Of a stretch of DNA of 64,000 nucleotides, positions 3,277 to 26,919 are shown piece by piece. The stretch's first letter is position 1; every line of letters starts with the position of its first letter. The notes under the pieces are model-generated. The model worked only from the letters and a program-made list of their open reading frames with translations. It was not told where the DNA came from and did not search any database. The stretch covers positions 20,269 to 84,268 of the forward strand of contig DYTN01000006.1 in assembly GCA_020725925.1 (NCBI GenBank), given 5' to 3'. The position numbers and the translations under genes are program-made. The DNA is from Methanobacteriota archaeon. Its GTDB lineage: Archaea > Thermoplasmatota > Thermoplasmata > UBA10834.

Positions 3277-3300
3277 GTTCACATGCAATGGGATGCAGAC
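3277..3300 (+). repeat. 24-bp site A (putative recombination site)
   Basis: GTTCACAT-GCAATGGG-ATGCAGAC; intergenic, 44 bp before ORF 3345. Confidence 0.75.
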
Positions 3301-3344
3301 TGCGATTCACTGCATGTAGCTGATAGGCTCGTATCGGTGTATGG

Positions 3345-4295: not shown

Positions 4296-4319
4296 GTCCA
4301 CATGCAGCGGCATCAGAGC
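4296..4319 (+). repeat. 24-bp site B
   Basis: GTCCACAT-GCAGCGGC-ATCAGAGC; intergenic between 4260 and 4432. Confidence 0.7.
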
Positions 4320-4431: not shown

Positions 4432-5091
4432 CTAGCTCTTCTTGCGCGCACGAAGCTTCTTCTCAGTCATCTCCTCGAGCTCGATCTTGATTGGAGACAC
4501 GACACCCCTCTCTTCCTCCAGCTCCTGCAGCCTCACCGCGAGATAACCCTCAAGGATCACCTCGCCACTCTGCGCCTCACACTCCTCCAGAATAGTGCGC
4601 CACTCAAGGCCTCGTTCTGCCAGACGAGCCATATCGTTGAGGTCGCCCTCTCGTTCAGTCACGCTCTTGAACAGGAAGATGTCTTCTGCAGACACGAGGT
4701 AGACTTCGAGTTTCCCATGCCTTGAATGGAGCTTGGAACGCGCGGCCATGCGAGGAGTGACCTTGATCTTTCTGCAGACTGTCTCTAGAAAGATGTCGAC
4801 ACGCATGCCCTTCTTGTCTTCCATCATGATTGCTGTTCCAAGACGACAATAGACATTGTCCTTCGGCACTACCACTCGGAAATCCTCCGTCGACAGCGCC
4901 TTGACCACCGATTCAGCCTCGTTCGCTGTGAGCAGTACCAGATCGATATCCTTGGTTGCGATCTTGGCGTTGTACAGAATCATTGCGCAGCCGCCAATTA
5001 GGTACGCCCTGACGTCGTCTGCTAGGGCTTGCCCCATTTGATTCAGAGCTCGTTCTAGATCATCCTTGCTTGACAATGCCCTATTGTTCAT
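4432..5091 (-). CDS. DUF6036-like nucleotidyltransferase (AbiEii-like toxin fold)
   Basis: Motifs 'YLIGGCAMILY...ATKDIDLV' and 'LFKSVTEREGDLND'. Overlaps the upstream HTH gene by 4 bp. Confidence 0.7.
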   Translation of the reverse strand: MNNRALSSKDDLERALNQMGQALADDVRAYLIGGCAMILYNAKIATKDIDLVLLTANEAESVVKALSTEDFRVVVPKDNVYCRLGTAIMMEDKKGMRVDIFLETVCRKIKVTPRMAARSKLHSRHGKLEVYLVSAEDIFLFKSVTEREGDLNDMARLAERGLEWRTILEECEAQSGEVILEGYLAVRLQELEEERGVVSPIKIELEEMTEKKLRARKKS

Positions 5092-6044
5092 ATGACGCCG
5101 CTCCCCAACTTGCCCTTGAGCTCGTCCAACTTCGGGAATGTGGGCGGTCGACTCACATCTGGATCTCTGAAGTAGTTGCGAATCGTCTCGAGATCGTCCT
5201 GTAGACCATACCTTGAAGCGCCTCTCCGGAGCCGGGCAAAATCTCGGGATAGGTTATTCCTGAGCCAGAGCATCAGTATCGCGGTATTCTCTCTGGTGTC
5301 CCGAGGCCTTAGAAGCATCGACTGCAGTAACACTTCATCAATTGTCCTGCGCCATTTTCCGATTGGATGGTAGTAGTACCGCCACGCCACGAAAAGTTGA
5401 ACGCCGTACTGCTCGAAGGCGGAAAACGCAGTCAGTCTGAAGTCCTCGCTCTCCTCGGCGCACTTGGTCCTGATGATGAATTCGCGACCTCGCTGCCAGA
5501 TCACCGTTGCATCGGAGCAGAACTCCTTCGCCTCAATCTGATTGGAGTACTCGTCGAACTCCTGCACGAATTCCGCAATGGGCTGGAAGCGGTCCGATAT
5601 CTCATAGATCCCCCTGGTCCGAGCACGCACCACCCCCAGTTCGCTCAACTGCTTCAGGGTCGTGTGGAGCGTTCTCGCTGAGACACCTGTGGACTGCATG
5701 AGGCTGGCTCTTGAGGATTCGGGGTATGCCGCGAGAGCCGAGAGGACGTTAAGAGATGCCAGCGAGATGATTCCTTCCAGCTTCATATGGCTGAACTCAT
5801 CAAGCACCCTCCTCAATCGTGACGCGTGCTTCTGGCGGGACATCGAGATCGAGGTCGTCATTCCCCGCCTGTCGACGTCCACCAATCCCTTGATCTTCAG
5901 CGATTTGACCAAGCGGGAGAGCTCCTGCGGGGAGATGTCCAAATCCTGAGCGACGGTCTTGGTGGCTTGGCCTTTCTCCCTGATGCTTCTCAGGACGGAG
6001 ATTTCCAAGGGTGTCAAGCGGGAGATTGCGTGGTTCATATGCAA
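5088..6044 (-). CDS. Tandem winged-helix (MarR-like) protein, putative AbiEi-type antitoxin/regulator
   Basis: Two HTH-like segments ('KTVAQDLDISPQELSRLVKSLKIKGLV', 'ARTLHTTLKQLSELGVV'). Translationally coupled to the nucleotidyltransferase. Confidence 0.65.
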   Translation of the reverse strand: MHMNHAISRLTPLEISVLRSIREKGQATKTVAQDLDISPQELSRLVKSLKIKGLVDVDRRGMTTSISMSRQKHASRLRRVLDEFSHMKLEGIISLASLNVLSALAAYPESSRASLMQSTGVSARTLHTTLKQLSELGVVRARTRGIYEISDRFQPIAEFVQEFDEYSNQIEAKEFCSDATVIWQRGREFIIRTKCAEESEDFRLTAFSAFEQYGVQLFVAWRYYYHPIGKWRRTIDEVLLQSMLLRPRDTRENTAILMLWLRNNLSRDFARLRRGASRYGLQDDLETIRNYFRDPDVSRPPTFPKLDELKGKLGSGVI

Positions 6045-6115: not shown

Positions 6116-6172
6116 GGTGTCCAGTGGGAGTTGACACCCTATATTAGCAAATCAAGGGGAATTGTTGACACC
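6116..6172. promoter_or_regulatory. Operator-like motif GGTGTC-N11-GACACC plus a third TTGACAC half-site
   Basis: 6116..6144 matches 14418..14446 at 25/29. An extra TTGACAC lies 34 bp downstream in both copies. Confidence 0.55.
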
Positions 6173-6183
6173 TAGGTGAGGTT

Positions 6184-6207
6184 GGCTGCTTGTAGCAGGA
6201 ATTATCA
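6184..6207 (+). repeat. Integrase-proximal variant site I1 (attI-like)
   Basis: GGCTGCTT-GTAGCAGG-AATTATCA; the spacer starts 46 bp before the S-R-D codons of integrase 1, the same offset as I2. Confidence 0.5.
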
Positions 6208-6234
6208 GGACAGATCGGGGGCCTCGCTCAGGCA

Positions 6235-7215
6235 GTGTCTCGCGACTCATGGGTCCGTTGTCAGCAAGCGTACTTCGATGCGATCAGGTCCTACTACGCG
6301 CCAAGGACACTCCATTCTATGGAGCGTGGGTTCAGGACGATTCACGGGGCCTTTCTGGAGCTTCAAAATCAGGGCAAGGTACGGACTAGCAATCCGCAGA
6401 AGCTCACCAAGGATGACATCGCCGCATTCATGGAATGGATGAGAACAAGGAGGACGAGGACCGGCCTCAGTCTCGCTCACTCCACCCAGGCCAACTACAT
6501 GGACTACCTGAACGGCTTCCTTAGGTTCGAGAGTAACGGCGTGATCGACCAGATGAGGAAGCTCCACTATGTACGATTCCCTCAGAAGGTGCAGGGCGAG
6601 GTGAAGGTCCTGACGGAATCGAGACTGGAGGAGCTCCGGTTCAAGCTGCGAACGATGCCGGGGTATGAGGGGGCCGTCGCCCGGTTCATGGTGGCAATGT
6701 ACGCATACTCCGGTCTGAGGAGATCGGAGCTGCGCTTGTCGAGGCTCGAGGATCTGCGCCTCGATACCTGGACCATCTTGGTGGCCCACCCAAAGGGCGA
6801 AAGCAGCTGGGCGGCAGCGGCTCCCGCTCAGATACTGCCGCCTGCCCGCGATACTGTGCGAGAATTCCTGCGCGAGCGAAGACGGTATCTCCGGGCCTCA
6901 GGGGTATCGTCCTGCGAGGCCCTCGTCCCGAAGATATCGAATGGGGTGGCCGGCTACTGGACTGACGGGATGTGGGGCAAGGTCAAGGCAGCAGCAGTGG
7001 AGTGGTCCGGGATCAGGTTCCGCATCCAGGCGCTCCGAGCGACCTTCGGACAGATGAGCATCGATTGGGGCTGTCGGCTCGATGCGGTGTCGAGGGCGCT
7101 TCGCCACAAGACAACTCGGACCACAGAACTATACTATGCGAGGATTCGTTCCGATCATGCCTTTCGCCTGCTTGAGGAAGCATACGAGGGTGCCCACCAG
7201 GGGAGCGCCAAGTAG
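6235..7215 (+). CDS. Tyrosine recombinase / site-specific integrase (copy 1)
   Basis: Catalytic motifs SGLRRSEL (R), HPKG (K), QALRATF (QxxR in place of HxxR), LRHK (H) and ELYY (Y). Confidence 0.9.
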   Translation: MSRDSWVRCQQAYFDAIRSYYAPRTLHSMERGFRTIHGAFLELQNQGKVRTSNPQKLTKDDIAAFMEWMRTRRTRTGLSLAHSTQANYMDYLNGFLRFESNGVIDQMRKLHYVRFPQKVQGEVKVLTESRLEELRFKLRTMPGYEGAVARFMVAMYAYSGLRRSELRLSRLEDLRLDTWTILVAHPKGESSWAAAAPAQILPPARDTVREFLRERRRYLRASGVSSCEALVPKISNGVAGYWTDGMWGKVKAAAVEWSGIRFRIQALRATFGQMSIDWGCRLDAVSRALRHKTTRTTELYYARIRSDHAFRLLEEAYEGAHQGSAK

Positions 7216-7299
7216 GGCCCCCAATCTGTATGCTTTTATTTCATACGCGCTAACTAAGGCATATTGGTTTATATAGTATGTATGCTTTAGACTCTATGA

Positions 7300-8196
7300 A
7301 TGAATGAAATCATACTTGACCGTCTGCGTGATACATTGCTCACGCGAACCTCTCTCGATCGTCTTCCGGAAGATGTCTGGAAGCGATCGAGCGCCCTGAA
7401 TACTTGGGGAACCAACGCCATCGAAGGCAACACCTTGACTTGGAAGGAAGTTGAGAGACTGCTGCTTGAGGGCAAGAACATTGGGAACAGACCCATCCGC
7501 GATGTTCTCGAGACGATTCAACACGAAAGCACTTACAGGGACCTTCTACAGCGCAGGAGTCAGCCAATCACTCTGGTGACAGTGCTCGAGCTTCACGAAT
7601 CGGTGTTCAAGCGAGTGAAGGCGGATGCAGGCCAGTGGAGACGAGTCAACGTACGAATCACAGGATCGACACTCGTTCCTCCTCGGATGGAGAAGGTGGT
7701 GCCGGAGATGGAGGCCCTTCTCAGGCAATATGATAATCGGGACTTGGAAGGTGCGGAGACCTTCGACTTGGGAGCCTGGTTTCATCACGGATTCGAGTCT
7801 GTTCATCCTTTCAGCGATGGCAATGGCAGAGTCGGCAGACTTCTTCTCAACCTCCATTTCCTCAGGCGCAATTGGCCTCCCATTCATGTCCTTCCTCCGG
7901 ATAGGGAGACCTACCTGTCTGCAATGGAGAAGGGAAATCAATCCGACCTGTCGGATTTGGTGTCCTTTCTCAAGGAGCTGATGGGTCGATCCCTCCTCGA
8001 CCTGCTGGACCAAGTGGGTACTGGGGATGACGAGCTTAGGCCATTGAAGAAGCTCGCGTCGAAGGGGCCATACTCGGCGCACTACCTCAGCCTCAGGGCT
8101 GGCCAAGGGGAGCTGCCGGCGATCAAAGTCTCAGGGGATTGGCGGACCAGCGTCCGTGCGTTGCGACTATATCGGGAATTCACGGGGCGGGATTAG
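7300..8196 (+). CDS. Fic family protein with a C-terminal HTH-like tail
   Basis: Canonical HPFSDGNGRVGR motif; N-terminal 'TNAIEGNTLT'; TATA box tttatata at 7268..7275. Confidence 0.9.
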   Translation: MNEIILDRLRDTLLTRTSLDRLPEDVWKRSSALNTWGTNAIEGNTLTWKEVERLLLEGKNIGNRPIRDVLETIQHESTYRDLLQRRSQPITLVTVLELHESVFKRVKADAGQWRRVNVRITGSTLVPPRMEKVVPEMEALLRQYDNRDLEGAETFDLGAWFHHGFESVHPFSDGNGRVGRLLLNLHFLRRNWPPIHVLPPDRETYLSAMEKGNQSDLSDLVSFLKELMGRSLLDLLDQVGTGDDELRPLKKLASKGPYSAHYLSLRAGQGELPAIKVSGDWRTSVRALRLYREFTGRD

Positions 8197-8205
8197 CGAA
8201 ACGTC

Positions 8206-8257
8206 CTACCCTCACATTTCCCAGAAATTGGCCGAAACAGCGAAATTGTGAGGGTAG
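8206..8257. terminator. Inverted repeat / hairpin after the fic gene
   Basis: Perfect 11-bp arms ctaccctcaca (8206..8216) and tgtgagggtag (8247..8257). Confidence 0.4.
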
Positions 8258-8310
8258 ACCTGCGCACGTGAAGCGGCGCCCCGCTCTTTCAGAAGATATC
8301 AGTCGAGACG

Positions 8311-8334
8311 GTTTGCATGTAGGGGAATTCGAAT
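8311..8334 (+). repeat. 24-bp site C
   Basis: GTTTGCAT-GTAGGGGA-ATTCGAAT; shares 15 identical bp (tgcatgtaggggaat) with site F. Confidence 0.75.
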
Positions 8335-8444
8335 CCGCAGCTATGGCTCTCTTCCGACGCAGCCGCTTGGAGCTGGCTCCTTTGTGATATAGATTATTCG
8401 TGTAAACTATTTATATGGGTAAATCATTCCATGCTCCCGAGACA

Positions 8445-9041
8445 ATGAACACGGATGCTCTAATCGCCGACAAGCTTCTCTCCGTTGCGCGGTTGTGGGG
8501 GGAAGCAAGTGACATGATCTATTCTGGAGTCCGTAAGGATGGCGACAGGGCCTGGTTTCACATGGCAGGCTACGAGGTGCTGAACCACATCGACAATGGC
8601 ATCACAACCACCAAGAAGCTTGCAGCCGAAGTGAACAGCACGATGGCCAACATCACGCACATGACCAAGGCCTTGGAGGAGAGTGGATGCATAAGGCGGG
8701 AGGTCAACAAGACGGACAAACGTGTGTGGAATTTCCACACGACTTCGAAGGGAAGAAACCTGCTTCGCGTCGTCCGGTTGCAACATGTCGCAGCCATTGG
8801 GCACTTCTGCTCACAATTCACCGAGGATCAGAAGATGTGCGTGTTGACCTTCCTCAGCGCCATCGAAACGCATTTGGTTCAGTTTGTCCGGATACCTGAG
8901 GGCGAGCGAATGAAGATGTTGCAGCAGCACCAGAGTCCTGAGCTGGCGGCTCATTTCAGCTCCATGCAAGCCTCAGGCAAGCGAAGCGCTTCCTCCAGAC
9001 GTAGACGGCTCGTGGGGAAACGGGGAGTTGACCGTGCTTGA
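8445..9041 (+). CDS. MarR family transcriptional regulator
   Basis: 'KKLAAEVNSTMANITHMTKALEESGCIRREVNKTDKRVW..HTTSKG'. The ORF-track start 8415 falls in a TATA-like tttatat about 30 bp before ATG 8445. Confidence 0.75.
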   Translation: MNTDALIADKLLSVARLWGEASDMIYSGVRKDGDRAWFHMAGYEVLNHIDNGITTTKKLAAEVNSTMANITHMTKALEESGCIRREVNKTDKRVWNFHTTSKGRNLLRVVRLQHVAAIGHFCSQFTEDQKMCVLTFLSAIETHLVQFVRIPEGERMKMLQQHQSPELAAHFSSMQASGKRSASSRRRRLVGKRGVDRA

Positions 9042-9964
9042 TCGAACTACAGAACTTGACCAAAACCTTCGGATCACTGAGAGCCGTCGACAACCTCAGC
9101 CTGAGCGTTCCGAAGGGTCAGACTGTTGGATTTCTGGGACCTAACGGCGCTGGCAAGACAACGACCATCAGAATCATGACCAATTCGATCAGTGCGACAA
9201 GCGGTAGCGTACTCCTTAACGGGATAGACGTGAGGGCCAACCCGAAGCAAGCCTTGGGCTCTGTGGGGATAGTCGTTGAGACTCCGGAATTCTATTCCTA
9301 TCTGACTTCCCTTGAGGTTCTGGCGTATCTTGGAAGCCTCAAGGGGTTGCAGCCGAATGAAATCAAGCGGCGGAGCCAAGAAGTCCTTCATCTGGTCAAG
9401 ATGGATGAATGGAAAGACACGCGCGTCGGTGGTTTCTCGAAGGGTATGAAGCAACGGCTCGCGATTGCCCAGGCCATGCTTCACGAACCTGAGATACTCA
9501 TTCTCGACGAGCCCACGACAGGCTTGGATCCGCGAGGCATGGTAGAGGTGAGGGAGGTCATTCGTCGGCTCAAGAGGGAAGGATACACGATCTTCATGAG
9601 CTCGCACTTGTTGCCGGAGGTCCAAGAGGTCTGCGACAGCGCCGCCCTGGTCAATCATGGAAAGCTTCTGGCCTACGATTCCATTGACAATCTCGGAAAG
9701 ATGGTGAAGAACACCAGGATCGAGGTCATGACCTTTTCCGACATCCCGCCGTCCATCCTTGACAGAATCAAGGAACTTCCGCAAGTACGCTCGGTCGACC
9801 TTGTGAACGCACGCTCGGTCATAGTCACCATCGAGGATTCGCCCAGTGCTCGTGCCGATCTCCTCGGTTCGATCCAGAATGCTGGCACCCCCGTCACTGG
9901 GTTTCAGCCTATCGATCTCCCACTAGAGACGATCTACATGGATTTGGTGAAAGAGTCGAGGTGA
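9038..9964 (+). CDS. ABC transporter ATP-binding protein (CcmA/multidrug type)
   Basis: Walker A GPNGAGKTT, signature FSKGMKQR, Walker B LILDEPT, H-loop SSH. Confidence 0.95.
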   Translation: MIELQNLTKTFGSLRAVDNLSLSVPKGQTVGFLGPNGAGKTTTIRIMTNSISATSGSVLLNGIDVRANPKQALGSVGIVVETPEFYSYLTSLEVLAYLGSLKGLQPNEIKRRSQEVLHLVKMDEWKDTRVGGFSKGMKQRLAIAQAMLHEPEILILDEPTTGLDPRGMVEVREVIRRLKREGYTIFMSSHLLPEVQEVCDSAALVNHGKLLAYDSIDNLGKMVKNTRIEVMTFSDIPPSILDRIKELPQVRSVDLVNARSVIVTIEDSPSARADLLGSIQNAGTPVTGFQPIDLPLETIYMDLVKESR

Positions 9965-9970
9965 TTGTAG

Positions 9971-10804
9971 ATGACAGAGGATGTAATGAGGAGACGCCAG
10001 TTACCGTCAGACCTCGTCCAGACACTGATTGTATGGAAGTACGAATCTCTGAAGTACCTCAGGTCATACAGGCTTGTCGGTTCAATCGTGATAGTTCTCG
10101 CCATCGTCGCCCTCGTCTACGTGGGTCCCATCCTGGCCGGGAACGGCTATGGCAGCGTAGATGCTGAGGCCTTCGCGTCGAACTTCGTCCAGTTCGCTAG
10201 CATGCTCATCGTAGTCTGTGCGACGTTCTTCGGAGCTGACGCAATTGTCGGCGAATTTCAGAACAGGACTGGTCACACAGTCCTTTCGAGCGCGGTGAAC
10301 CGGCGCACAGTCTATGCGGGAAAATTCAGCGCAAGCGCGATCATGGGCATATGTGTGGTGGCACTATTCTACGCAAGCATCGGCATCCTCTCGTGGTTGA
10401 CTATCGGCAATGTCGACGACGATTTCGCGATATCGTTTGCATATGCCCTGGAGCTACTCCTGGCTGCAACAGCGGTGGCCTACCTGATCAGCGCCATCTT
10501 GAAGAGCACGACTGGCGCATCCGTGCTCAACTTCTTCCTCTTGATTCTCGTCCTTCCGATAGTCGATATGATGGTGTCCTATGCTGGCATAAGGCCCGAA
10601 GGGTCGCTCACCTTCTCAGCAGGAGTCATAGGCAGCGTGTTGGCAGATCCGTATCCAGTAGACACCACGGTGACAATGCACGGGATCACGTCATCTCGAT
10701 TCTTTCCGGATCCGGCACTTGCCGCCATCGTCCTTCTTGCATATGGATTGGCCGCTCTGGCGATGGGGATTCTCCTATTCAGGAGGAGGCAATTGCAGGG
10801 CTAG
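9971..10804 (+). CDS. ABC-2 type transporter permease
   Basis: About six hydrophobic helices and an 'IVGEFQNRT' EAA-like motif, directly after the ATPase gene. Confidence 0.85.
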   Translation: MTEDVMRRRQLPSDLVQTLIVWKYESLKYLRSYRLVGSIVIVLAIVALVYVGPILAGNGYGSVDAEAFASNFVQFASMLIVVCATFFGADAIVGEFQNRTGHTVLSSAVNRRTVYAGKFSASAIMGICVVALFYASIGILSWLTIGNVDDDFAISFAYALELLLAATAVAYLISAILKSTTGASVLNFFLLILVLPIVDMMVSYAGIRPEGSLTFSAGVIGSVLADPYPVDTTVTMHGITSSRFFPDPALAAIVLLAYGLAALAMGILLFRRRQLQG

Positions 10805-10813
10805 TGGGAAATG

Positions 10814-10837
10814 CGTCGCATGTAATGGGATATTAAC
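10814..10837 (+). repeat. 24-bp site D
   Basis: CGTCGCAT-GTAATGGG-ATATTAAC, 10 bp after the permease stop. The spacer differs from site A by one base. Confidence 0.65.
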
Positions 10838-11212
10838 CGAGCATTTCGCCGAGCGGGGGGTTCGAGGCCGTGCAGCACGTAGCAGAAAAGCAAATGTACT
10901 GCTGAGGGAATGGTACGAATGTGTACAACGCCGCTGCGACGCGAGGAATTCGATCTCGAACTGGGAACTCAGGTCTTATATCGGGCGGAAGATACTCAAG
11001 GAATGCGAATAGCTGCCGGGCTAGGTGATGTAGGTGGCGTACCCGGAACCAATCCCTGTTCTCAAGTCGAAGGAAGCCAAGGAGTTCGAGAATAGATTGG
11101 ACTCATTCAAGCTCAGCGGCGCCCAGAAAGAGTTATATCGACAAGCAATTGAGAGATTCGGCTCCAGGTAGACGATCACCGGCGAACATGGGGGCCTGAG
11201 TCCATCGCGCGG

Positions 11213-11788
11213 TTGTTCGAGCATCCCAGCGAGATCGATACCTTCAGACTCAGGTTCGAACCATTCAAATCTGACTCCCTTCAGGTGAGATCCGTTGACT
11301 GTGGAAACAGGGCTCTCAACGATTTCCTTAGGTCTGAAGAAGTCGCCAACTACGAGCGGGAACTGCTTGGAAAGACGACTCTGGTCTTCTACGAAGGAGA
11401 TCTTGCAGGATACTACACAATGAGCAGCGGATCCCTCAGATCTGAGTACCTCAAGACTTGGAGGAGCTTCACGAAGGCCGGTGAAGTTCACCTGAACGCG
11501 ATACCCTGTTTGATTGTTGGTAGACTTGCCGTTGACGGGAGATGGCAGAACAAAGGGGTTGGAAGAACAGTCATGCAGAGAATCATGATTCACGCCCTTG
11601 ATTGCTCGAGACATGCGGAGATCCGTTTAGTTGTGGTTCAGGCGAAGAAGGAAGCCACTGATTTCTACAAGAAGCTCGGGTTTGATTTCGTCGCAGAGAC
11701 CAGTGAAGAAAGGAAGAGATTCAAAGCTAGAAACACGAGGACGATGTTCTTCGATATCCTCGAGCTCAGTTACCTGAGAACCATCTAG
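11213..11788 (+). CDS. GNAT family N-acetyltransferase (AtaT/TacT toxin-like)
   Basis: 'DCGNRALNDFL', 'GYYT', 'GRLAVDGRWQNKGVG', 'FYKKLGF'. Confidence 0.85.
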   Translation: MFEHPSEIDTFRLRFEPFKSDSLQVRSVDCGNRALNDFLRSEEVANYERELLGKTTLVFYEGDLAGYYTMSSGSLRSEYLKTWRSFTKAGEVHLNAIPCLIVGRLAVDGRWQNKGVGRTVMQRIMIHALDCSRHAEIRLVVVQAKKEATDFYKKLGFDFVAETSEERKRFKARNTRTMFFDILELSYLRTI

Positions 11789-12126
11789 ACTACATCAGAA
11801 TCACTCGAGACTGGGGTCGAAAGGTCCACGATCCTCTGAGCAGGCACATCAAGTTGAAACCAGCCGACCTCTCCAAGTGGCGAGCTGATCAGAAGAATCA
11901 GAGATATACAGTATGTTTTCGAGATCCAACCTTCGGTTGAAGATTGGCCTCATCGGAAAAGTGAATCCAATCTACTTAAAGAATGGCACGTGGCTGGCCA
12001 CAGTGGCAACTCCGCGTCCTTCTGATGCGTATTGTACTATGATGCAGCATTTTCACGTCAATGTCATGCATCATAATACAACATGCTCGGCAATGCCTAC
12101 CCACGTACTGCTGAGGCTTCCTGACT

Positions 12127-12150
12127 GTCCACATGCGGTGGGATTTGAAC
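12127..12150 (+). repeat. 24-bp site E
   Basis: GTCCACAT-GCGGTGGG-ATTTGAAC; the left arm is identical to site B. Confidence 0.75.
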
Positions 12151-12247
12151 TGACGCCCGTTCATCCCCGACGACCTGACATATCCAAGACTCGGCCGCGA
12201 GAGGCTACGAGCAGCAACAAAGTATAATACACTCGGCAGGAATCTCG

Positions 12248-12562
12248 ATGCGACAAGAGAACGAGGCCCTGAGGTCGAACATGACGGAAGCTTGTAGAAC
12301 GGCTCTGCCAAAGGGCATGTCCATCCGCCGAATTGCGGCTGAGATCGAACAGGCAGCGCAGAACAAACTCTGGGTTATGAACCACATGGCGGAACTCAGA
12401 GAGAAGTATCCTGACCAGTTCGTCGCATGCAGGGATGGGAAGATTGTTGCCAGTGCGAGTTCGAGTGAGGGGGTCTTCCGCAAACTCAAGAAAAAACGGG
12501 AGGACCTGTCTCTTATCGCCATCGAATTCGTGCCGAAGGACCGTGTGATTTGGCTCCTTTGA
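12248..12562 (+). CDS. DUF5678-domain protein
   Basis: 'WVMNHMAELREKYPDQFVACRDGKIVASA...IEFVP...WLL'; TATA-like gtataat about 25 bp upstream. Confidence 0.7.
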   Translation: MRQENEALRSNMTEACRTALPKGMSIRRIAAEIEQAAQNKLWVMNHMAELREKYPDQFVACRDGKIVASASSSEGVFRKLKKKREDLSLIAIEFVPKDRVIWLL

Positions 12563-13078
12563 TTGTTCATCCGGCGCGGTGGCGGTCTCTTGAGGAAATT
12601 CCCAGCTAGGATCTCCGATGATCCTGATCAAGCTGAGGCGTTCTTCTTCACGTGCTATGTTCTGGCTCATGACCATCTCAAGGGGGCTTTGGTGAACTTC
12701 TACCTCGACACAGGTTCCTCGGACGTGATCATGGGGGAGAACGATCTCAAGAAGATTGAGATGCCTCTTGCATCATTGCCACACGCGCCCGAGCCCATCG
12801 CTGGATGGGGCGGCACTACAGTCGCGTTCCTTATGACGAACGTCTGCCTGTACCTGACTGATAGTGAGGGGAAGACCGAGGCCTTTGAGGTTCCTGAGGT
12901 GATCTGTGGGAGGAACCCCAAGCATGACAAGACGAAGACAAAGGGGATGCAAAGAATCACTGAGACCCGAAGGATTCCAATTCCCAGCGTCATTGGAAGG
13001 AGGTTTCTCCGGGACACGGGATTGATTGCCCATGTCGACGTGAAGGGCAGAGACATCTGCCTGTTCTCCCCGGGCTAG
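12563..13078 (+). CDS. Clan AA (retropepsin-like) aspartyl protease family protein
   Basis: 'FYLDTGSS' catalytic-type motif and C-terminal 'SVIGRRFL'; abuts the DUF5678 gene. Confidence 0.7.
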   Translation: MFIRRGGGLLRKFPARISDDPDQAEAFFFTCYVLAHDHLKGALVNFYLDTGSSDVIMGENDLKKIEMPLASLPHAPEPIAGWGGTTVAFLMTNVCLYLTDSEGKTEAFEVPEVICGRNPKHDKTKTKGMQRITETRRIPIPSVIGRRFLRDTGLIAHVDVKGRDICLFSPG

Positions 13079-13133
13079 GACCCCTGTAGATCGGCAGAAT
13101 CACACAGAGATTTCCGCGCGCGCATCCGAGTGG

Positions 13134-13157
13134 GTGTGCATGTAGGGGAATGCAAAC
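13134..13157 (+). repeat. 24-bp site F
   Basis: GTGTGCAT-GTAGGGGA-ATGCAAAC; spacer identical to site C, right arm identical to site G. Confidence 0.8.
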
Positions 13158-13177
13158 CAGGTTCAGCTCATGGCACA

Positions 13178-14395
13178 TCAGACCTTATCCTCGAGCATGA
13201 ATCGCCACAATGGTAAGAGCTCAACGCCATCGACGCGCCCGCTCTGGTTCCTCGTGATGACGATCTTCCGCTTGGCCTTCAGGTCCTTCAGATGAGAGAC
13301 GTCATCCAGGTTCACCCGGTCGGAGTACTTGACCTCGTAGCACGAATCTGGAAGGACGAAATCCACCTCCCTTTCGCGGACGAGACCGTAGGCGGGGTTG
13401 TAACCGCGTTCTCGCAGCTTGTTGAACACGCAGTTCTCAACTAGGCATCCGATGTTGACTGTGGGGCTCAGGATGTGCACGATGCCTGTGTCGCTCAGGT
13501 AGGCCTTCCTCGGAGCTGCCATACTCTCGGCCACCTTCCCCTTCAGCCGGATTGTGTGGATCAGGTTCGCCTCCTCGAAAGCCGAGAGGTGCTCGCGCAC
13601 AGTCTCATGCGATATGCCGAGGATCCTTGCGATCCTTCTCGGCGACAGCTTAGAGCCGCAGCTCTGTGACACTATCAGCAGTAGCTCCCTGAGGACCCGC
13701 ATGTTCCTCACACCGCGGCGGGCACCGATGTCCTTGTACAGTATGGAGTCGATGAGGGTCGTCAAGTAGCCGGGGTCGCCCGTCTTCAGATACTCTGGAA
13801 GGCCCCCTGCGCGAACGAAATCCTCGATATGTCTGACCATCAGATGGGAATCGCTTGGCTTTGTCCTGATCTTCTTCATGACGAGGTACTCTGAGAAACT
13901 GAACGGGAAGACCTCAATGAATGTCTGCCTGCCCGTCAGGAACGAACCCTTCTCGACCATAAACAACGACGAAGAGCCGGTGGCGAAGACCTTGACGTGC
14001 CCAAGATCGTATGTCGTCTTGAGCTCCTGTTCGAAACCATCCCTGAGATGGACTTCGTCGATGATTGTTGTGAATCGATCGTTGTGTTTCAGACCATGGA
14101 GCCGCCTGTAGCTGTTCAGAACGTCCAGGATTGATTCTCTTACTAGCGAGGGGTGGTCCATGGAGAAGTAGAGGATTCTTCTCGGATCCTGCCCCCTCGA
14201 AATGAGTTCTTCGATGTATTGGCGGACCAGCGTGGTCTTTCCAACTCTGCGGAGACCGGTGACGAAGACAATCTCTTTGGTTCGCTCTCGTCGACTCAGC
14301 TGCTCGAGATATCGGGTTCTTCTGATTCCCTCAGCCCTGAATGGGGATTCCCACCACGGGTTGAAGATTGCCAGGACTTCTTCCACGAAGTGCAA
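13178..14395 (-). CDS. AAA+ ATPase with DUF4143 nuclease-like domain (COG1373)
   Basis: Walker A GLRRVGKTT, Walker B IIDEVH, 'ATGSSS', 'LTGR', and C-terminal 'EVDFV...YEVKY'. Confidence 0.85.
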   Translation of the reverse strand: MHFVEEVLAIFNPWWESPFRAEGIRRTRYLEQLSRRERTKEIVFVTGLRRVGKTTLVRQYIEELISRGQDPRRILYFSMDHPSLVRESILDVLNSYRRLHGLKHNDRFTTIIDEVHLRDGFEQELKTTYDLGHVKVFATGSSSLFMVEKGSFLTGRQTFIEVFPFSFSEYLVMKKIRTKPSDSHLMVRHIEDFVRAGGLPEYLKTGDPGYLTTLIDSILYKDIGARRGVRNMRVLRELLLIVSQSCGSKLSPRRIARILGISHETVREHLSAFEEANLIHTIRLKGKVAESMAAPRKAYLSDTGIVHILSPTVNIGCLVENCVFNKLRERGYNPAYGLVREREVDFVLPDSCYEVKYSDRVNLDDVSHLKDLKAKRKIVITRNQSGRVDGVELLPLWRFMLEDKV

Positions 14396-14417
14396 AGGAC
14401 ATCAAGGAGTATATATA

Positions 14418-14474
14418 GGTGTCCACTACAAGTTGACACCCTATATAAACAAACGATGCAAGACGCTTGACACA
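14418..14474. promoter_or_regulatory. Operator-like motif (second copy) between divergent TATA boxes
   Basis: ggtgtccactacaagttgacaccctatat, with TATA-like tatata on both flanks (about 14410..14417 and 14442..14449) and an extra ttgacac at 14467. Confidence 0.55.
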
Positions 14475-14501
14475 TCTGCCATGAAGAACTCTCTTGAGCA
14501 T

Positions 14502-14525
14502 GTCTGCATGCAGCGGAATGCAAAC
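14502..14525 (+). repeat. 24-bp site G
   Basis: GTCTGCAT-GCAGCGGA-ATGCAAAC; arms are 7/8 complementary and the spacer differs from site B by one base. Confidence 0.8.
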
Positions 14526-14611
14526 ATGTGACAATGCGGCCCTTGGAGTTGTGTCTAGTTTCACTGCACGTACTGGGAAAGACTAACCAGTCAAAGTCAG
14601 TCCTCTTAGTG

Positions 14612-14905
14612 ATGGAGTCCGATGGGCCCTCCGACACTTGTGAGAGGAAAGCGTTGTTCGTCGCCTGGCTCAAACGTAACAGCGCAGGCAAGACACTACG
14701 CGTCTGTAGGAGGAAACTCAAACATCCGGACCTGGCGGAGGATACCCTGACTTCATTTCCCAGCAAGATCTGCATTCAACGACAATACGGCGAGGAGTTT
14801 GTTCGTCTTGAGGACCGCAAATGGGCGGATGAACTCGCGAAGACCTATGAGGTGAAGGTGATGCATCATGCCCAGCGCATTGGGCTGAAAAAAGATTTAC
14901 TGTAA
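14612..14905 (+). CDS. Hypothetical protein, paralog of 3345..3647
   Basis: Homology to the first copy begins after ATG 14612 (the ORF track extends to GTG 14528). Confidence 0.75.
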   Translation: MESDGPSDTCERKALFVAWLKRNSAGKTLRVCRRKLKHPDLAEDTLTSFPSKICIQRQYGEEFVRLEDRKWADELAKTYEVKVMHHAQRIGLKKDLL

Positions 14906-14956
14906 CAAAAAAGATATATATGGTAGAATGCAGGTACGGATAGAACTAGCTCAGAT

Positions 14957-15466
14957 GTGCCCAACATGAGGAACGAAAAAGTACGCTCAATTCGCGACAC
15001 GGTTGACGTGGTCGACGCCCCTTTCGGGGGCCTGTTCGGGAGTATATCACAACAGAAGGTGCTCCAGGAGCTGGTCGCCGATCCGTATTCAACCTACACT
15101 CCAAGAGACCTCACAGAGCTGACAGAGCTCACAGAGCCGACTGTGCGAGAAGCGATTGCTGCTCTGCTCCAACTTGGGATTCTCAGGAACATATCTCGGC
15201 GCAGAATGCGGCCGGTGTATCAAGTGAATCTAGACTCGAAAAGAATGGTCGCGCTGATGTTTCTCAGTTATGCAACTCTGGACGATAGGTACGGCGAGGA
15301 CCATCTGAGCGACGCCGTCAAGTGCTACTACGAGACGGTTCAGTCTTCGTGTCTTGAGCTCGAACCAGGAGAAGTGACAAGCGTGATGGGGGATTCATAC
15401 TGGAGCATTGCCAAAGAGGCGCTTTCAAGCGAGAAGGGGTATGCAGCCGCAGCGGCGGGGGTGTAG
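14957..15466 (+). CDS. Winged-helix (ArsR-like) DNA-binding protein
   Basis: 'PFGGLFG...VLQELVADP...TPRDLTELTELTEPTVREAIAALLQLGIL'; paralog of 3739..4260; TATA gatatatat upstream. Confidence 0.75.
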   Translation: MPNMRNEKVRSIRDTVDVVDAPFGGLFGSISQQKVLQELVADPYSTYTPRDLTELTELTEPTVREAIAALLQLGILRNISRRRMRPVYQVNLDSKRMVALMFLSYATLDDRYGEDHLSDAVKCYYETVQSSCLELEPGEVTSVMGDSYWSIAKEALSSEKGYAAAAAGV

Positions 15467-15469
15467 AAG

Positions 15470-15811
15470 ATGGCAAAGAGACCGAAATCCGATCTGGAGC
15501 CGTCCCCTAGACCCGGGGACTCAAGGATTTCAATAGATCTAAGGAAGATCTACGAATTTGACGCCAAGGACATAGTGCCTGAGATCAGCACGATCAGGTA
15601 CTCCAACCTGGCTTACATCCAGGTCACGCCGCGGGACCTCTACATAGATTTCCTGGAAATGCCCGGCGTGAAGAAAGATGGCCGGATGGTCGTGAGCGGG
15701 GTGAGGGTCTACATGTCTCACGTAGCAGGTCAGAGGCTCTCCCAGACTCTAGGGCACACCATTTCGGAGGTCCTCGAGAAGGGCAAGATTGAGGAACTCA
15801 AGAAGAGATAG
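15470..15811 (+). CDS. DUF3467-like protein
   Basis: 'YSNLAYIQVTPRDLYIDF...VRVYMS...QRLSQTL' fits the DUF3467 pattern as recalled. In frame with the upstream wHTH gene (TAG AAG ATG). Confidence 0.6.
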   Translation: MAKRPKSDLEPSPRPGDSRISIDLRKIYEFDAKDIVPEISTIRYSNLAYIQVTPRDLYIDFLEMPGVKKDGRMVVSGVRVYMSHVAGQRLSQTLGHTISEVLEKGKIEELKKR

Positions 15812-15907
15812 AACCGTCGAGTGGGGCTCTGCAGTTCTTACCCTTGCATTTCGACAGAATCGAGACATGGAATGGATTTGCAGGGGTAATCTAGTGCCTC
15901 AGATTGC

Positions 15908-15931
15908 TGCTACATGTAACGCAAATCCTCA
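15908..15931 (+). repeat. Integrase-proximal variant site I2 (attI-like)
   Basis: TGCTACAT-GTAACGCA-AATCCTCA; same 46-bp offset as I1, and the right arm matches I1 at 6/8. Confidence 0.5.
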
Positions 15932-15946
15932 CTATGGAACTCAGCC

Positions 15947-16972
15947 ATGGACACGGTTGTGGGTCGCGATCCATGGGTTCCATGTCAACGGGCCTATCTT
16001 GAGGCGATCAGAAGCTACTACGCTCCGAAGACCCTCCAGACAATGGAGCGAGGCTTCAGGACTTTACATAGGGCCTTCCTCGAGCTTAGGAAGGATGGCA
16101 AGGTCAGCACAACGAATCCTCAGATGTTGACTAAGGACGACATCGCGGCCTTCATGGAATGGATGAGGACGAGGAAGACGAGGCATGGCATCAGCCTTAC
16201 ACATGCCACTCAAGCCAACTACATGGACTACCTCAACGGACTTATGAGGTTCGAGAACAACGGGGTGATCGACCAGATGAGAAAGCTGCACTATGTGCGC
16301 TTCCCTCAGAAGGTGTCTGCCGAAGTCAGAGTACTGCCAGAGTCTCGAGTCGAGGAGATCCGCTCAAAGCTTAAGACAATACCGGGGTACGAAGGCGCTG
16401 TGGCACGGTTCATGGTGGCGATGTACGCCTACTCAGGTCTCAGAAGATCTGAGCTTCGCCGAGCTAGGTTCGAGGACCTTAACATCGACACCTGGACGAT
16501 TATGGTTGCTCATCCCAAGGGCGAGAGCAACTGGGCCGTCGCCTCTCCCGCACGGATATTGCACCCTGCCCGTGAGACGGTCGTCGAGTTCCTGGCAGAA
16601 CGAAATCGGTATCTGGCTGATGCCGGCATCGAGTCATGCGAGGTATTGGTGCCTAAGATCATCGATGGCGTCGCAGGATATTGGACTGACGGGATGTGGG
16701 GGAAGATCAAGGCAAAGGCTGAGAAGTGGTCAGGAATCAGGTTCCGGATCCAGACTCTGCGGGCCACTTTCGGTCAGATGTGCATCGATTGGGGCGGCCG
16801 TCCCGATGCGGTCTCTAGGGCGCTCAGACACAAGACCACACGGACGACCGAACTCTACTACGCCAGGATACGGCCGGATCATGCTTTTCGTCTTCTCGAT
16901 CAGGCTTACGATTCTGCTCATAGCGAGAAGAGGTCCCCACAAAAGCCCCTCGGTTGGGAAGAAGCCAGCTAG
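15947..16972 (+). CDS. Tyrosine recombinase / site-specific integrase (copy 2)
   Basis: Same motifs as copy 1 (SGLRRSEL, HPKG, QTLRATF, LRHK, ELYY); roughly three-quarters identical to copy 1 by eye. Confidence 0.9.
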   Translation: MDTVVGRDPWVPCQRAYLEAIRSYYAPKTLQTMERGFRTLHRAFLELRKDGKVSTTNPQMLTKDDIAAFMEWMRTRKTRHGISLTHATQANYMDYLNGLMRFENNGVIDQMRKLHYVRFPQKVSAEVRVLPESRVEEIRSKLKTIPGYEGAVARFMVAMYAYSGLRRSELRRARFEDLNIDTWTIMVAHPKGESNWAVASPARILHPARETVVEFLAERNRYLADAGIESCEVLVPKIIDGVAGYWTDGMWGKIKAKAEKWSGIRFRIQTLRATFGQMCIDWGGRPDAVSRALRHKTTRTTELYYARIRPDHAFRLLDQAYDSAHSEKRSPQKPLGWEEAS

Positions 16973-16976
16973 TCCG

Positions 16977-16999
16977 GTGTGCAGGGACCTGATTTGAAC
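16977..16999 (+). repeat. Possible variant site H immediately after integrase 2
   Basis: GTGTGCAG-GGACCTG-ATTTGAAC: left arm 7/8 to site F, right arm identical to site E, but a 7-bp divergent spacer. Confidence 0.35.
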
Positions 17000-17708
17000 C
17001 TAGATAACCGGCGGAATCGCCCTCTACTCGTTTTCCCACTAATCCAACCACTGCCTGCCGCGGGATGGTTTCTCTACAGGCAAGGAGTGTGTTGTCAGTC
17101 CATAAGGCCTGGACAATCTGGCTACACTTCAATTGAGACTTGTCTGAGATGTTCAAAACAGGAGTAGCGCATTGCGTCTTCCGCGAGTTGATTCCCTGCC
17201 GTTATCATTTGCAGGTGAAACTCCTTCGCCGACAGAGAGCCGTCTTCCCTGCTATGATGGGGACAATGTCCTTCAGTCCAGTCGCCAATTCGCATTGACA
17301 CGGTCTCCTCAGTGCGTCTGAGGAAGTGCATCTAGGTCTCAGGACGCACGCAAAGCCGGAAAGCCACTGAAACCGCTCGACTTGCAGTCAAGCGTCTCGG
17401 ACAACGACTCAGACCAGCCATGCAGTCAGCGTGCCGCCGGGGTCTTAACACAACGCAAGGGTCTCTCTTGGGAAGCATAGGACTTCTGAAGGAGGATCGC
17501 TGGATTGGACGCAATGGAAGAGACCAAGACATAAGTATCTGGATGACGATACGATAGTTGGTCCGAAGAGCAACCTCGACTCGGGGGAGTTCTGAACGTG
17601 TGGGGAGGAATCGGCTCATTGCTGGAGACTCCGCCTCAATTCAATGAGGACTAATCTCGCCAGGCAGGCGTGCTTTTCTTTGCTGATATCAGGAAGTAAG
17701 CCGGAGAT

Positions 17709-21664: not shown

Positions 21665-22069
21665 TAGTAATCCTGCTCGCTTGTCCTTTGTTTCCTTCAT
21701 CTTCTAGGCGAAGATCTGTCCCCTGAGATGCTTAGCTGGCAACGTGACCTCGAGATCAATCATGAGCCGAGAGCTAGACATGAACCCAATACTAGCCATG
21801 TCTTCAGGCATGTAGGTTCTTGCGCCCAACCGCACTCACTTCAACCAAATGACGGAGTCCTCTGTCCGTAGGTAGACGGAGTCTCCCCCCTCATTTTGCA
21901 TCGGCAAGTAAAGCATCCATTTTTGGTTGCCGGAAGACTCCGGGCCAATATCCGGGCCCAGACTCAACATCCGCCTCTTGCACGAAGTGCTTGTCTTCGA
22001 ACCCAAGAAGATTCATCTGTTAGTCTGCGATTCGGAGATCTAGCGCATGGTCAACTTCGGTGGCGTCAA

Positions 22070-22956: not shown

Positions 22957-24315
22957 TCAAACCGAAAGAAGGAGCCACCACAGGGGAAACATACCAATCG
23001 CCACACCCCCGACCTCCATGCTCCCCTGCTTGTCCTTCGTGACCATAAAGGCCTTGTCGCAGTCGTGGACCTCGCAGAACCTGACGAGGCCCTTTGCGTC
23101 CGACTTGTAGATGCTGCTCTGGTACTTCACCTCGATAGGGACCGGACGCGCTCTCGACGGGAGGACGATGTCCACCTCGTTCCCCTGAGAATCCCTCCAG
23201 AAATAGACCGGTGAAGTCCTGGACAGGTGGTTGTACACCGAGGTCTCCGCAAGTCTGCCTATCTCCTGAGTCCCGGTGGATTCGTCTAGGCCGAGGAGTG
23301 AGGTGATGAGTCCGTTGTCAGTCAGATATGCCCTCTTCGACGACCGTGCCTGCTTCACCATGCTCTTCGTGAAGTTGTAGCAGGTCGACATGAGCATCGC
23401 ACGTTCCAGGATGGACAGGTACTTCGAGGCCGTCTGCGCCTTCATGCCGATGTCGGGCGCGATGTTGGAGATCTCGAACCTCTGTGAGCTCATAGAGGCC
23501 AGTATCTTGAGGAGGTGCATCATACTAGCCGGGTTGGCGACGTTCTCCGTCTCAGGAAGATCATGGTACACGACGCGCTCCAAGACCGACTGCCGGATGT
23601 ACCTGTGCACTTTCGAGATTGGGCGCATGCCCACAGTCTCTGGATAACCCCCTCTTATCAGATACTCGTTTAGCGCATCGGAGACCTGCTCCTTGATGAG
23701 CATGAATGATGAAGGAATACCGGATCTCGACCAGATCAGGGGCAAGCGTGGTGCGTCAACGCCTCTGAACCTGAGGTACTCGCGGAAGGATAGCGTCGGG
23801 ACAGTGATGTCGAATGCCCTGCCTGCCAGGCTCTCGCCCATGCCCTTCTTCACACCGAGCGACGAGGAACCCGATGCGAAGATCTTCGCGTTCGGCTGGG
23901 CCTCATAGATGCGCTTGAGTAATGTGGGCCAGTCACGGACGAACTGGACCTCATCGAGGAATAGGAAGGCTCTGGCTTGTTTCGACGGTTTGGCTGGCAA
24001 CACATTGGTGAGGAAGTAGGAAACGACATCGTCGAGCACCGTATGTTCTCTGGAAAGCACCTCATCGAAGGAGAAGTAGAGGATGTTCCTGCGATTGGTA
24101 CCCTTGTCGAGTCGCTCCTGCATCGTCAGGATCATCGCGGTAGTCTTCCCCGATCTCCTTGGACCCGTGATCAGAAGAATCTGACGGTCCGCTAGGTATT
24201 TCGCAATCTCCTCTGTTGCATCTCTCGAATGGATCTTGTCCACGTGTTCGAGGAGACTCTCACCCCTCCATTGAGGGTTTGAGGCCTTCATCTGTCTGAT
24301 GATTTCTTCATTCAC
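22957..24315 (-). CDS. AAA+ ATPase with DUF4143 domain (COG1373)
   Basis: GPRRSGKTT, FLDEVQ, SGSSS, SLAGR, C-terminal 'EVDIVL...PIEVKY'; TATA attataaa about 25 bp upstream. Confidence 0.85.
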   Translation of the reverse strand: MNEEIIRQMKASNPQWRGESLLEHVDKIHSRDATEEIAKYLADRQILLITGPRRSGKTTAMILTMQERLDKGTNRRNILYFSFDEVLSREHTVLDDVVSYFLTNVLPAKPSKQARAFLFLDEVQFVRDWPTLLKRIYEAQPNAKIFASGSSSLGVKKGMGESLAGRAFDITVPTLSFREYLRFRGVDAPRLPLIWSRSGIPSSFMLIKEQVSDALNEYLIRGGYPETVGMRPISKVHRYIRQSVLERVVYHDLPETENVANPASMMHLLKILASMSSQRFEISNIAPDIGMKAQTASKYLSILERAMLMSTCYNFTKSMVKQARSSKRAYLTDNGLITSLLGLDESTGTQEIGRLAETSVYNHLSRTSPVYFWRDSQGNEVDIVLPSRARPVPIEVKYQSSIYKSDAKGLVRFCEVHDCDKAFMVTKDKQGSMEVGGVAIGMFPLWWLLLSV

Positions 24316-24557
24316 GCCCAGTCAATGTAATTTTGAGTTTATAATGATTTCCAGTAAGCCTAAAATTCGTGTGCGTGCTGCCCTTGGGGCCCCCCGGAGT
24401 CATTCTTTCCGACCCCGCCGCTCGTTCCGTTGTGCTTCGGTGTAAGGAGTTTGTGCGATAGTTGATAATTGATATTTGAATGACTTATCACAATTTGCAC
24501 AAATCATTGCGACGGTGACATGAAGAAGCGTTGGTCCTTGCTTCTCGCCGGCGAGTA

Positions 24558-24692
24558 TAGCTCCCTGCATTAATTGCCAGTAGATTCTGTGCCAATAACT
24601 GGGCGTCAATTTGTCCCTAACATTCGTGAATTCTTTAGGTGGGGGGTTTAATTGCCAGCAGATTCTCGGCAGATATCCGGGTCCTCGCACAT
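24558..24692 (+). repeat. RepB family: copies R1 (24558..24587) and R2 (24636..24692)
   Basis: taattgccagtagattct and taattgccagcagattct are 78 bp apart. R2 continues as gcagatatccgggtcctcgcacat. Confidence 0.65.
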
Positions 24693-26562: not shown

Positions 26563-26919
26563 GCTCCAGCCGACCATCTCATTAGCCGCTGCAGGGGACT
26601 CCTATTCCCTGCCCTCCGAGACAGTGGCCCCAGGGTGACCGCATATCCTCCGCCAATCTCCAGAACATCTCCCCTGGCCTTCTTGAGATCGGCTGACAGG
26701 TCAAGGCTCATGGAGACCATATGGTTGGCGCCTTTGCCAGAGGTCGTAGTGTTGCTCCTGACATGCGGAAGGAAAGGCAGCCTCGTTTCTTGCCGGTGAG
26801 AAAAGCGATGTCGGCACCCAGTCGTTTCCTGCCTGCAAGCATAGCATCAAGCTTTGATTGCCGGTGGATTCCGGGCCAATATTCCCAGGTCTTCTGTCCC
26901 CCATTTCCTAGCAGGATCA

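Follow-up and report, generated by a model that had tools for sequence, protein, structure and literature searches.

In the Cre/lox and Flp/FRT systems, a recombination site has two arms, and the asymmetry of the 8-bp spacer between them determines its polarity. Archaeal integrons combine IntI with folded attC sites (PMC9668308), whereas the pdif modules of Acinetobacter plasmids rely on the unlinked host XerC/XerD and carry sites that alternate in orientation (PMC6449649, PMC13141974). Integrative elements and satellites that lack an integrase accrete in tandem at tRNA genes in tycheposons (bioRxiv 10.1101/2020.12.28.424599) and in tRNA islands of the Islander type (PMC4383910). Cassette arrays go unmentioned in a review that deals with the tyrosine recombinases of archaea (PMC8371274), and our literature searches found no description of a system like the one reported here. 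It is present in a 64,000-nt stretch (the window) of contig DYTN01000006.1, from a Thermoplasmata archaeon, in which two tyrosine recombinase genes, int1 and int2, are each preceded by a 24-bp site that we call I-type, and in which related sites, called G-type, divide an array of small gene modules. The comparisons below favor, with a probability of roughly 0.55, the reading that the I-type site is an integrase-bound boundary element of the int module which probably is also autoregulatory.

With integrons the locus shares a specialised site immediately before the gene of a tyrosine recombinase, an array in one orientation, sites that have only part of their sequence in common, and a cargo rich in toxin-antitoxin-like and accessory genes. 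However, the sites are symmetric 24-bp duplexes instead of attC structures of 57-141 nt, long imperfect inverted repeats that recombine in folded single-stranded form, and the integrase fails the IntI models. The units also differ: here they are modules of one to three genes on either strand, with their own promoters and a link to tRNA-Leu(CAG), whereas integron cassettes are mostly single promoterless open reading frames that share one orientation and are expressed from Pc. The arrangement resembles integron topology but is not an integron.

The likeness to pdif modules lies in small accessory modules (toxin-antitoxin genes, transporters, regulators) that lie between short Xer-type sites, each with a pair of inverted arms around a short spacer, and are shuffled between replicons, in module ends that coincide with sites, and in a recombinase that is weakly most like archaeal XerA. 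Unlike pdif, the array is chromosomal, has one polarity (44/45 sites) and a dedicated linked integrase, and includes an extra int-specific site class. The general Xer-type layout, two inverted arms around a spacer of 6-8 bp, is found in full in the G-type sites and with the left arm only in the I-type sites. Accretion at tRNA islands offers further parallels, namely an int gene beside a tRNA 3' end, tRNA-like fragments at junctions, tandem units that often lack an integrase, and flexible cargo; in contrast to such islands, the present array has its own symmetric consensus (GTTTGCAT-N8-ATGCAAAC), units of 0.4-2.5 kb and an extra private site 5' of int. As in lox and FRT sites, several spacer classes coexist (GTAGGGGA, GCAATGGG, GTAGTGAA and others), which would limit pairing, but this is a natural multi-site array with cargo, and its I-type members have one recognisable arm.

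In the window, I1 occupies positions 6184-6207 of the forward strand (6184..6210 including a following GGA) and consists of the left arm GGCTGCTT, the spacer GTAGCAGG and the right arm AATTATCA(GGA). I2, on the same strand at 15908-15931 (15908..15934 including CTA), is composed of TGCTACAT, GTAACGCA and AATCCTCA(CTA). Both had been noticed in a first-pass annotation of the window, whose sequences and coordinates for them are exact. Its remark that the right arm is a type apart, with a left arm and spacer resembling other sites of the window, is correct too. At fixed register the two 24-mers agree in 15 of 24 bases (P about 3e-4). Agreement amounts to 7 of 40 positions on their left and 10 of 27 in the leader on their right, and the coding sequences are 74% identical. 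Because both flanks are unrelated, the I-type site is an island of conservation that shows no spill-over of gene homology. The right part of I2 matches the family consensus at 16/16 positions, and the nearest relatives of I1 are the sites upstream of int in loci L024 (..AACCATCAGG) and L025/26 (..AACAATCAGG).

With the starts placed by the N-termini of homologues, the 24-mer spans -51 to -28 relative to the int start codon. The spacers begin at 6192 (I1) and 15916 (I2), in each case 46 nt before the homologous codon (S at 6238, G at 15962). This identical offset, to which the first-pass annotation drew attention, is not a family-wide property, since the distance from site to gene in homologues varies and clusters at 42-46, 54-57 and 95-100 nt; the two window copies share it because int1 and int2 are two paralogues of the short-leader class.

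The conservation of the site was examined in 103 loci with integrase relatives, fetched from species-representative genomes (all Thermoplasmata/Thermoplasmatota metagenome-assembled genomes, MAGs) and from JGI metagenomes. The pattern gcTGCATGTA-RYGNRAAT-CMTCACKA precedes the start codon in 63 of the 65 close homologues (72-87% amino acid identity) and is found scarcely anywhere else, so that the proposed alignment upstream of homologous integrases supports a conserved 24-mer. Searching 881 kb of fetched DNA plus the window gave 45 distinct matches of at least 21/26, 43 of which precede an int start on the same strand by less than 140 nt, and 600 kb of shuffled sequence gave none at that threshold. 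The information profile has flat flanks, rises abruptly at position 2-3 (CTGCATGTA), and shows further conserved positions at AA (17-18) and TCAC (22-25). This 26-mer is as conserved as the protein that it precedes, and the DNA on both sides of it is not conserved. To the left of 61 I-type sites we distinguished about 22-27 unrelated contexts; to the right there invariably is int. Identical integrases with different left contexts were looked for and not found; integrase P0050 has the same surroundings, DUF5678-Fic-G-42 nt-I-int, in all 10 places where it occurs. An exact search of a genome collection with the I-type pattern was uninformative (eight chance bacterial matches and L001), as was one with a G-type 20-mer, which returned one chance match in a Bacteroidota contig of 39% GC, again with L001. 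The motif was not found upstream of integrases of 50-56% identity.

I-type sites share TGCAT, the spacer start GTAR and their polarity with sites at which recombination breakpoints are seen, and their other half, RAAT-CMTCAC, is private to int. The breakpoint sites are foremost those of the G-type, for which 41 distinct examples from all loci give the consensus gGTnTGCAT-GnAgnGGa-ATGCAAACC, with inverted GTTTGCAT and ATGCAAAC arms flanking an asymmetric 8-nt spacer. The polarity of this spacer relative to int is the same in 44 of 45 sites. Near-identical contig pairs turn into unrelated DNA inside these sites. L002 and L074, 99.5% identical, switch at GAGTGTGCAT/GTAGGGG... versus AGGTTCACAT/GTAGGGG...; the switch likewise falls inside a G-type site in L006/L069 (99.95%), L007/L073 (96%) and L004/L065 (95.6%), and in L002/L059 (97.3%) identity ends past the spacer. 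At these switches each arm remains with its own flank and the exchange is confined to CAT and the spacer, which matches the action of a tyrosine recombinase. L039 and L041 (99.8%) switch exactly at the tRNA-like site described below. Several contig names give the assembler k-mer as k = 127 or 141, far longer than the sites, so that chimeric joins at them are unlikely, though possible for single pairs. G-type sites are recombination breakpoints.

The G-type sites bound modules of 0.4-2.5 kb that hold one to three genes on either strand and have their own TATA boxes, as in the ATPase module, with its gene on the reverse strand, or the Fic module (TATA at 7269-7276). Other loci contain the same modules, with a nucleotide identity of 65-85%, arranged in other orders and in one case inverted, and homology ends at the sites. 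A site's right half varies together with the module that follows it: every ATPase module begins with ATGCAAACC[AG][GC]RTTCAGC, and every int module with the I-type right half. Three close ATPase homologues on contigs without an integrase (L124-L126) lack the flanking sites and keep their own promoter palindrome, GGTGTCAAC...TGGACACC.

The two recombinases are 76% identical in amino acid sequence. int1 (6235..7215, forward strand) has a GTG start, read as M-S-R-D by homology, and int2 (15947..16972, forward strand) starts at ATG 15947 (MDTVVGRD) or GTG 15959; homologues mostly begin with M-(G/S)-R-D, which supports these starts. Both proteins exceed the PF00589 cut-off of 27.1 bits, with 29.5 bits for int1 and 30.4 bits for int2, and the catalytic residues R175/R176, K200, R281, H304 and Y313/Y314 are invariant in an alignment of 28 sequences. 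The models for IntI, a family marked by an additional domain of its own, failed by a wide distance: TIGR02249 has a cut-off of 265 bits and gave 19.6 and 27.5, and PRK15417 gave 15-18 bits where 435 are required. The highest-scoring model, at 40-42 bits and thus below the equivalog cut-off of 220, was that of XerA, the chromosome-dimer resolvase of archaeal hosts, and the best match in the PDB was XerA of P. abyssi (E = 0.057). The protein is not an integron integrase. We also considered an SSV-type split integrase, with the in-frame stops TAG 6193 and TAA 15917 inside the spacer, and rejected it, as homologues start at M-G/S-R-D after the leader. A second recombinase, such as a resolvase, was looked for in the modules and not found, which leaves a single recombinase family in the arrays, and a collection of viral contigs contained no relatives of the integrase. 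The C-terminus of int1 is shorter than that of its homologues, and the Fic module follows immediately, joined 11 nt past the int1 stop (7213-7300) with neither a site nor a tRNA-like site in between; at other loci a G-type site lies about 50 nt upstream of the Fic module.

On its other side the int gene is anchored at a tRNA gene. In at least 30 loci, including those of the 50-56% identical clade, the opposite strand carries tRNA-Leu(CAG) about 20-25 nt past the int stop, oriented with the 3' end towards int. The complete tRNA-Leu(CAG) is convergent with int in most related loci; several have int, then a tRNA fragment, then 2.5-4.4 kb and only then the tRNA. Scans of the window with tRNA and Rfam models found nothing, and the window has no tRNA gene. 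Instead, int2 is followed at 16977-17000 (forward strand) by a T'-type site, GTGTGCAG GGACCTG ATTTGAAC. Its positions 16980-17000 reproduce 21 nt from the 3' end of tRNA-Leu(CAG), comprising acceptor, T-stem and T-loop, except for one absent base, and 17000 is exactly where homology to other loci ends. Besides the window, these observations on the 3' side of int cover L001, L004, L031, L038, L043, L069 and others. The tRNA-like site has the same 8-8-8 layout, GTGTGCAG-GGAGCCGG-ATTTGAAC, and the right arms of G-type sites grade from ATTTGAACC to ATGCAAACC. Because the tRNA 3' end adjoins int and the tRNA-like site is a breakpoint, the integrase family targets tRNA-Leu(CAG), the 3' end of which is its chromosomal attachment site. 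As a rule, int is the unit nearest the tRNA, with the array of modules lying upstream.

Within 10 kb upstream of int, a second copy of the tRNA fragment (up to 3 errors in 21 nt), the direct repeat that would mark the far end of a tRNA-targeted island, occurs in none of the loci nor in the window; internal junctions carry the diverged G-type consensus in place of a tRNA repeat. The idea that G-type sites simply are 3' tRNA halves, with a T-loop-like TTCGAAT in site 'a' and right arms of the form ATTTGAACC, was not retained: the two are related, but the consensus has moved to the symmetric GTTTGCAT-N8-ATGCAAAC. The clade of 50-56% identity (L010-L016, L080-L082) adjoins tRNA-Leu(CAG) as well and has a different upstream motif, resembling GGTATCAGAGCCCTTCGGTGCAAAAG; no repeated-site array was found within 10 kb in this clade, only a single conserved CTCGGTGCAARA upstream.

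The int1 module has its 5' boundary at I1, which falls inside the predicted 5' leader of int1. To its left, an outward-facing promoter of the neighboring module occupies 6116..6172 on the forward strand, consisting of GGTGTCCA-N6-GTTGACACC, TATATTA (6140-6146) and a second GTTGACACC. The TATA element is inside the neighboring module, about 45 nt left of I1. Judged by a predicted transcription start, this promoter probably drives int1 across I1; the transcript would then begin within the adjacent module and contain I1 in its 5' leader. The same divergent element, with GGTGTCCA-N6-GTTGACACC, TATATWA and a second (G)TTGACAC, is present at 14418-14448 and is kept by the ATPase homologues L124-L126 outside arrays. 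The GGTGTCCA-N6-GTTGACACC element probably is an operator for a helix-turn-helix (HTH) regulator and no part of the recombination sites.

Together these observations suggest the following model. Short duplex core-type sites would divide a Thermoplasmata genomic island, anchored at tRNA-Leu(CAG) in most relatives, into exchangeable modules of one to three genes, and the I-type site would be the int module's own member of this site family. It keeps the half by which the integrase would recognise the sites of the family, TGCAT and the spacer start GTAR, in the family's polarity, and would mark and maintain the 5' boundary of the int module, with exchangeable DNA to its left and int to its right. 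We infer that the integrase binds the site. With the site positioned downstream of promoters supplied by the left module, bound integrase would probably control its own expression, and strand exchange at the site may be rare or limited to sites of its own class. If the sites are integrase substrates, the locus would represent a second, independently evolved type of integron-like array, in Archaea, built from duplex core sites and a simple Xer-like recombinase. This would help to explain the shuffling of toxin-antitoxin-like, defence-like and transporter modules among Thermoplasmata populations in sediments, and would provide a compact natural collection of heterospecific 24-bp sites together with their recombinase. 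The narrower finding is a clean, testable cis element.

Several observations weigh against this model. The loci were all sampled through the integrase, which makes the association of array and int partly a matter of construction, and the whole data basis consists of MAG and metagenome contigs. The I-type left arm is type-specific: GC precedes TGCAT in 16 of 24 I-type contexts and CACAT never occurs, while position -2 is T in 38 of 41 G-type sites, which have the form GTn-TGCAT or GTT-CACAT. The I-type site therefore is not a simple hybrid of the neighbor's left half and the right half of int. I-type spacers (GTAACGCA, GTAGCGCA, GTAATGCA, GTAGCCGG and others) never equal G-type spacers (GTAGGGGA, GCAATGGG, GTAGTGAA and others), so classical homology-dependent exchange between I-type and G-type sites is not expected. 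The I-type right arm is also dissimilar to the inverted left arm, leaving a second integrase monomer without an obvious binding site. All of the about seven recent breakpoints that we mapped are at G-type or tRNA-like sites and none is at an I-type site, and pairs of loci of at least 92% identity break 17-36 nt before the int start, in the fast-evolving leader, and never exactly at the I-type site. In the L004/L045 group the I-type site was bypassed, exchange having taken place at a G-type site that precedes it by only 42 nt. The I-type site probably is not the main entry point of the family, although its at least 22 different left neighbours speak for changes over longer periods; recent exchanges map to G-type sites and to the 3' tRNA-like site.

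The lack of recent breakpoints would be explained if the I-type site were purely an operator or leader element, bound by the integrase or by an HTH protein of the host or of a module, perhaps via the 12-bp near-palindrome GCTRCATGYAGC around CATG, and never a crossover site. It would then regulate the int transcription that arises from the promoter of the neighboring module. Its placement between the TATA element at 6140-6146 and the int1 start, its constant presence within 42-100 nt of the start codon, the type-specificity of both arms and the fact that no int promoter is recognisable between site and start codon fit such a role as well. We nevertheless regard this explanation as unlikely, though worth keeping in mind, since homology ends exactly at the site against at least 22 unrelated left contexts, for which breakage and joining at or beside the site are needed. 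In addition, the polarity and the TGCAT plus GTAR half are common with proven breakpoint sites, and nothing would require an operator to be oriented like the sites of the array. A core promoter (B recognition element/TATA) or a ribosome-binding region of int, the simpler reading against which the first-pass annotation had asked for its motif to be checked, is very improbable. In the window the right arm does occupy -35 to -28 relative to the GTG starts. This is the place for the TATA element of a leaderless gene, a T/A-rich octamer about 26 nt before the transcription start, and the arm of I1, AATTATCA, is moderately A/T-rich. The consensus right arm AATCCTCAC (in I2, AATCCTCA), however, is not T/A-rich, whereas promoters in the window read TTTATATA or TATATAA, and the most conserved part, CTGCATGTA, is not promoter-like. 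The distance of 42-100 nt to the start, the TATA further upstream and the GGAGG Shine-Dalgarno sequence that many homologues have between site and start, which shows that the mRNA is not leaderless, also speak against it.

The first-pass annotation had preferred an analogy to attI, i.e., a preferred insertion point beside the integrase gene for circular modules that carry attC-like G-type sites. Part of this analogy stands: the site is directly upstream of int, site-bounded modules extend upstream in a single polarity, the module that adjoins the I-type site is highly diverse, and the left arm and spacer start are common with G-type sites. The remainder does not, as the integrase is not IntI, the 24-bp duplex sites are not folded attC (60-nt windows at six sites fold no better than shuffles, z -0.44 to +1.21), the modules have their own promoters and genes in both orientations, and tRNA-Leu(CAG) lies on the other side of int. 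Moreover, capture by exchange between I-type and G-type sites would swap left arms, yet only 2 of 41 G-type sites have GCTGCAT, and none of the recent events used the I-type site. An attI-like function is improbable on these grounds. A broader version, in which uncultivated Thermoplasmata possess an IntI-independent gene-capture platform with an Xer-like integrase at tRNA-Leu(CAG), heterospecific 24-bp sites, the I-type site as attI equivalent and an integrase transcribed from the last-captured module, so that capture and integrase expression would be coupled, we hold to be quite unlikely. Finally, the site could be an inert scar that hitch-hikes with int, a relic of an old recombination or deletion such as a G-type site with a damaged right half. 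Its RYGCRAAT indeed looks like the G-type arm ATGCAAAC moved 5 nt towards TGCAT, as after a 5-bp deletion in the spacer (e.g., TGCATGTAATGCAAAT in L033/L042). But several positions are invariant among integrases of 72-87% identity while the adjacent leader of 27-90 nt has diverged beyond alignment, which indicates purifying selection on the I-type site and makes an inert scar scarcely credible.

Within the window, a position-weight scan found related sites only at 3.2-17 kb, without exception intergenic and on the forward strand. At its left end the array has two adjacent sites, at 3277-3300 and 3308-3331 (GTTCACAT GCAATGGG ATGCAGAC and, after 7 nt, CACTGCAT GTAGCTGA TAGGCTCG), and homology to other loci begins at 3302. 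A degenerate site at 4296-4319 (GTCCACAT GCAGCGGC ATCAGAGC) lies between the module with an ArsR-type HTH gene and the module with a DUF6036 nucleotidyltransferase and an HTH protein. Then follow int1 with the Fic module and, at 8311-8334, G-type site 'a' (GTTTGCAT GTAGGGGA ATTCGAAT), which separates the Fic module from one with MarR and an ABC-2 transporter. The site at 10814-10837 (GCGTCGCAT GTAATGGG ATATTAAC) marks the start of a module at 10818-11790, and a site of G/T-type is present at 12127-12150 (GTCCACAT GCGGTGGG ATTTGAAC), with a module boundary seen at about 12200. G-type site 'b' (13134-13157; GTGTGCAT GTAGGGGA ATGCAAAC) lies between convergent genes, and its right half co-varies with the module of the AAA_14/DUF4143 ATPase, the right end of which is G-type site 'c' at 14502-14525 (GTCTGCAT GCAGCGGA ATGCAAAC). 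A weak site was found at 14562-14585. A DUF3467 cluster and int2 are further modules of the window.

Two I-type-like sequences without an adjacent integrase were seen near the module at 10818-11790. An orphan inverted copy, TACATGCGACGCATTTCCCACTAG, at 10803-10826 on the reverse strand overlaps the site at 10814-10837, and a degenerate relic, TACATCAGAATCACTCGAG, lies at about 11793-11812 on the forward strand, at the end of the module. They may be traces of a past inversion or deletion.

Some of the cargo looks like toxin-antitoxin or defence modules. At 4432-6044 the DUF6036 nucleotidyltransferase gene overlaps that of a 318-amino acid protein with multiple winged HTH domains, an AbiE-like pair, and at 7300-8196 a Fic/DOC protein is encoded. 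A 10-bp inverted repeat, TACCCTCACA-N30-TGTGAGGGTA, at 8207-8256 (variant TACCCYTACA...TGTARGGGTA) is recurrent near module ends. It is also present downstream of int in L024, L035 and L005 and about 25 nt upstream of the I-type sites in L027, L028, L052, L055 and L062, and could be an operator, a terminator-like element or a site for an accessory factor.

Two other repeats are found to the right of the array. The intergenic repeat TTRATTGCCRGYRGATTCYGGNCCAATATCCGGG (D3/D7) is at 21886-21959, 24533-24681, 26817-26965 and 32171-32244 of the window, and in L048 and L076 it lies about 35 nt upstream of G-type sites. Sites of the TGCATGTA type were not found after the D3, D7 and D8 repeats at 21-34 kb of the window. 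A motif of 28-48 nt, GAAAAGACCATAGGRATGGAAAGGCGAT (D8/D12), is repeated at 29357, 29407, 30543, 31391, 32291 and 34378, adjoins modules in L003 and L002, and may be a conserved leader or promoter. The G+C fraction is 0.52-0.56 up to about 34 kb of the window and 0.57-0.65 beyond. The low-GC part contains, besides the array, a second AAA_14/DUF4143 ATPase gene (22957-24315) and genes for EamA, VIT1, ADH and an aldo-keto reductase, and the island may be much larger than its site-bounded part.

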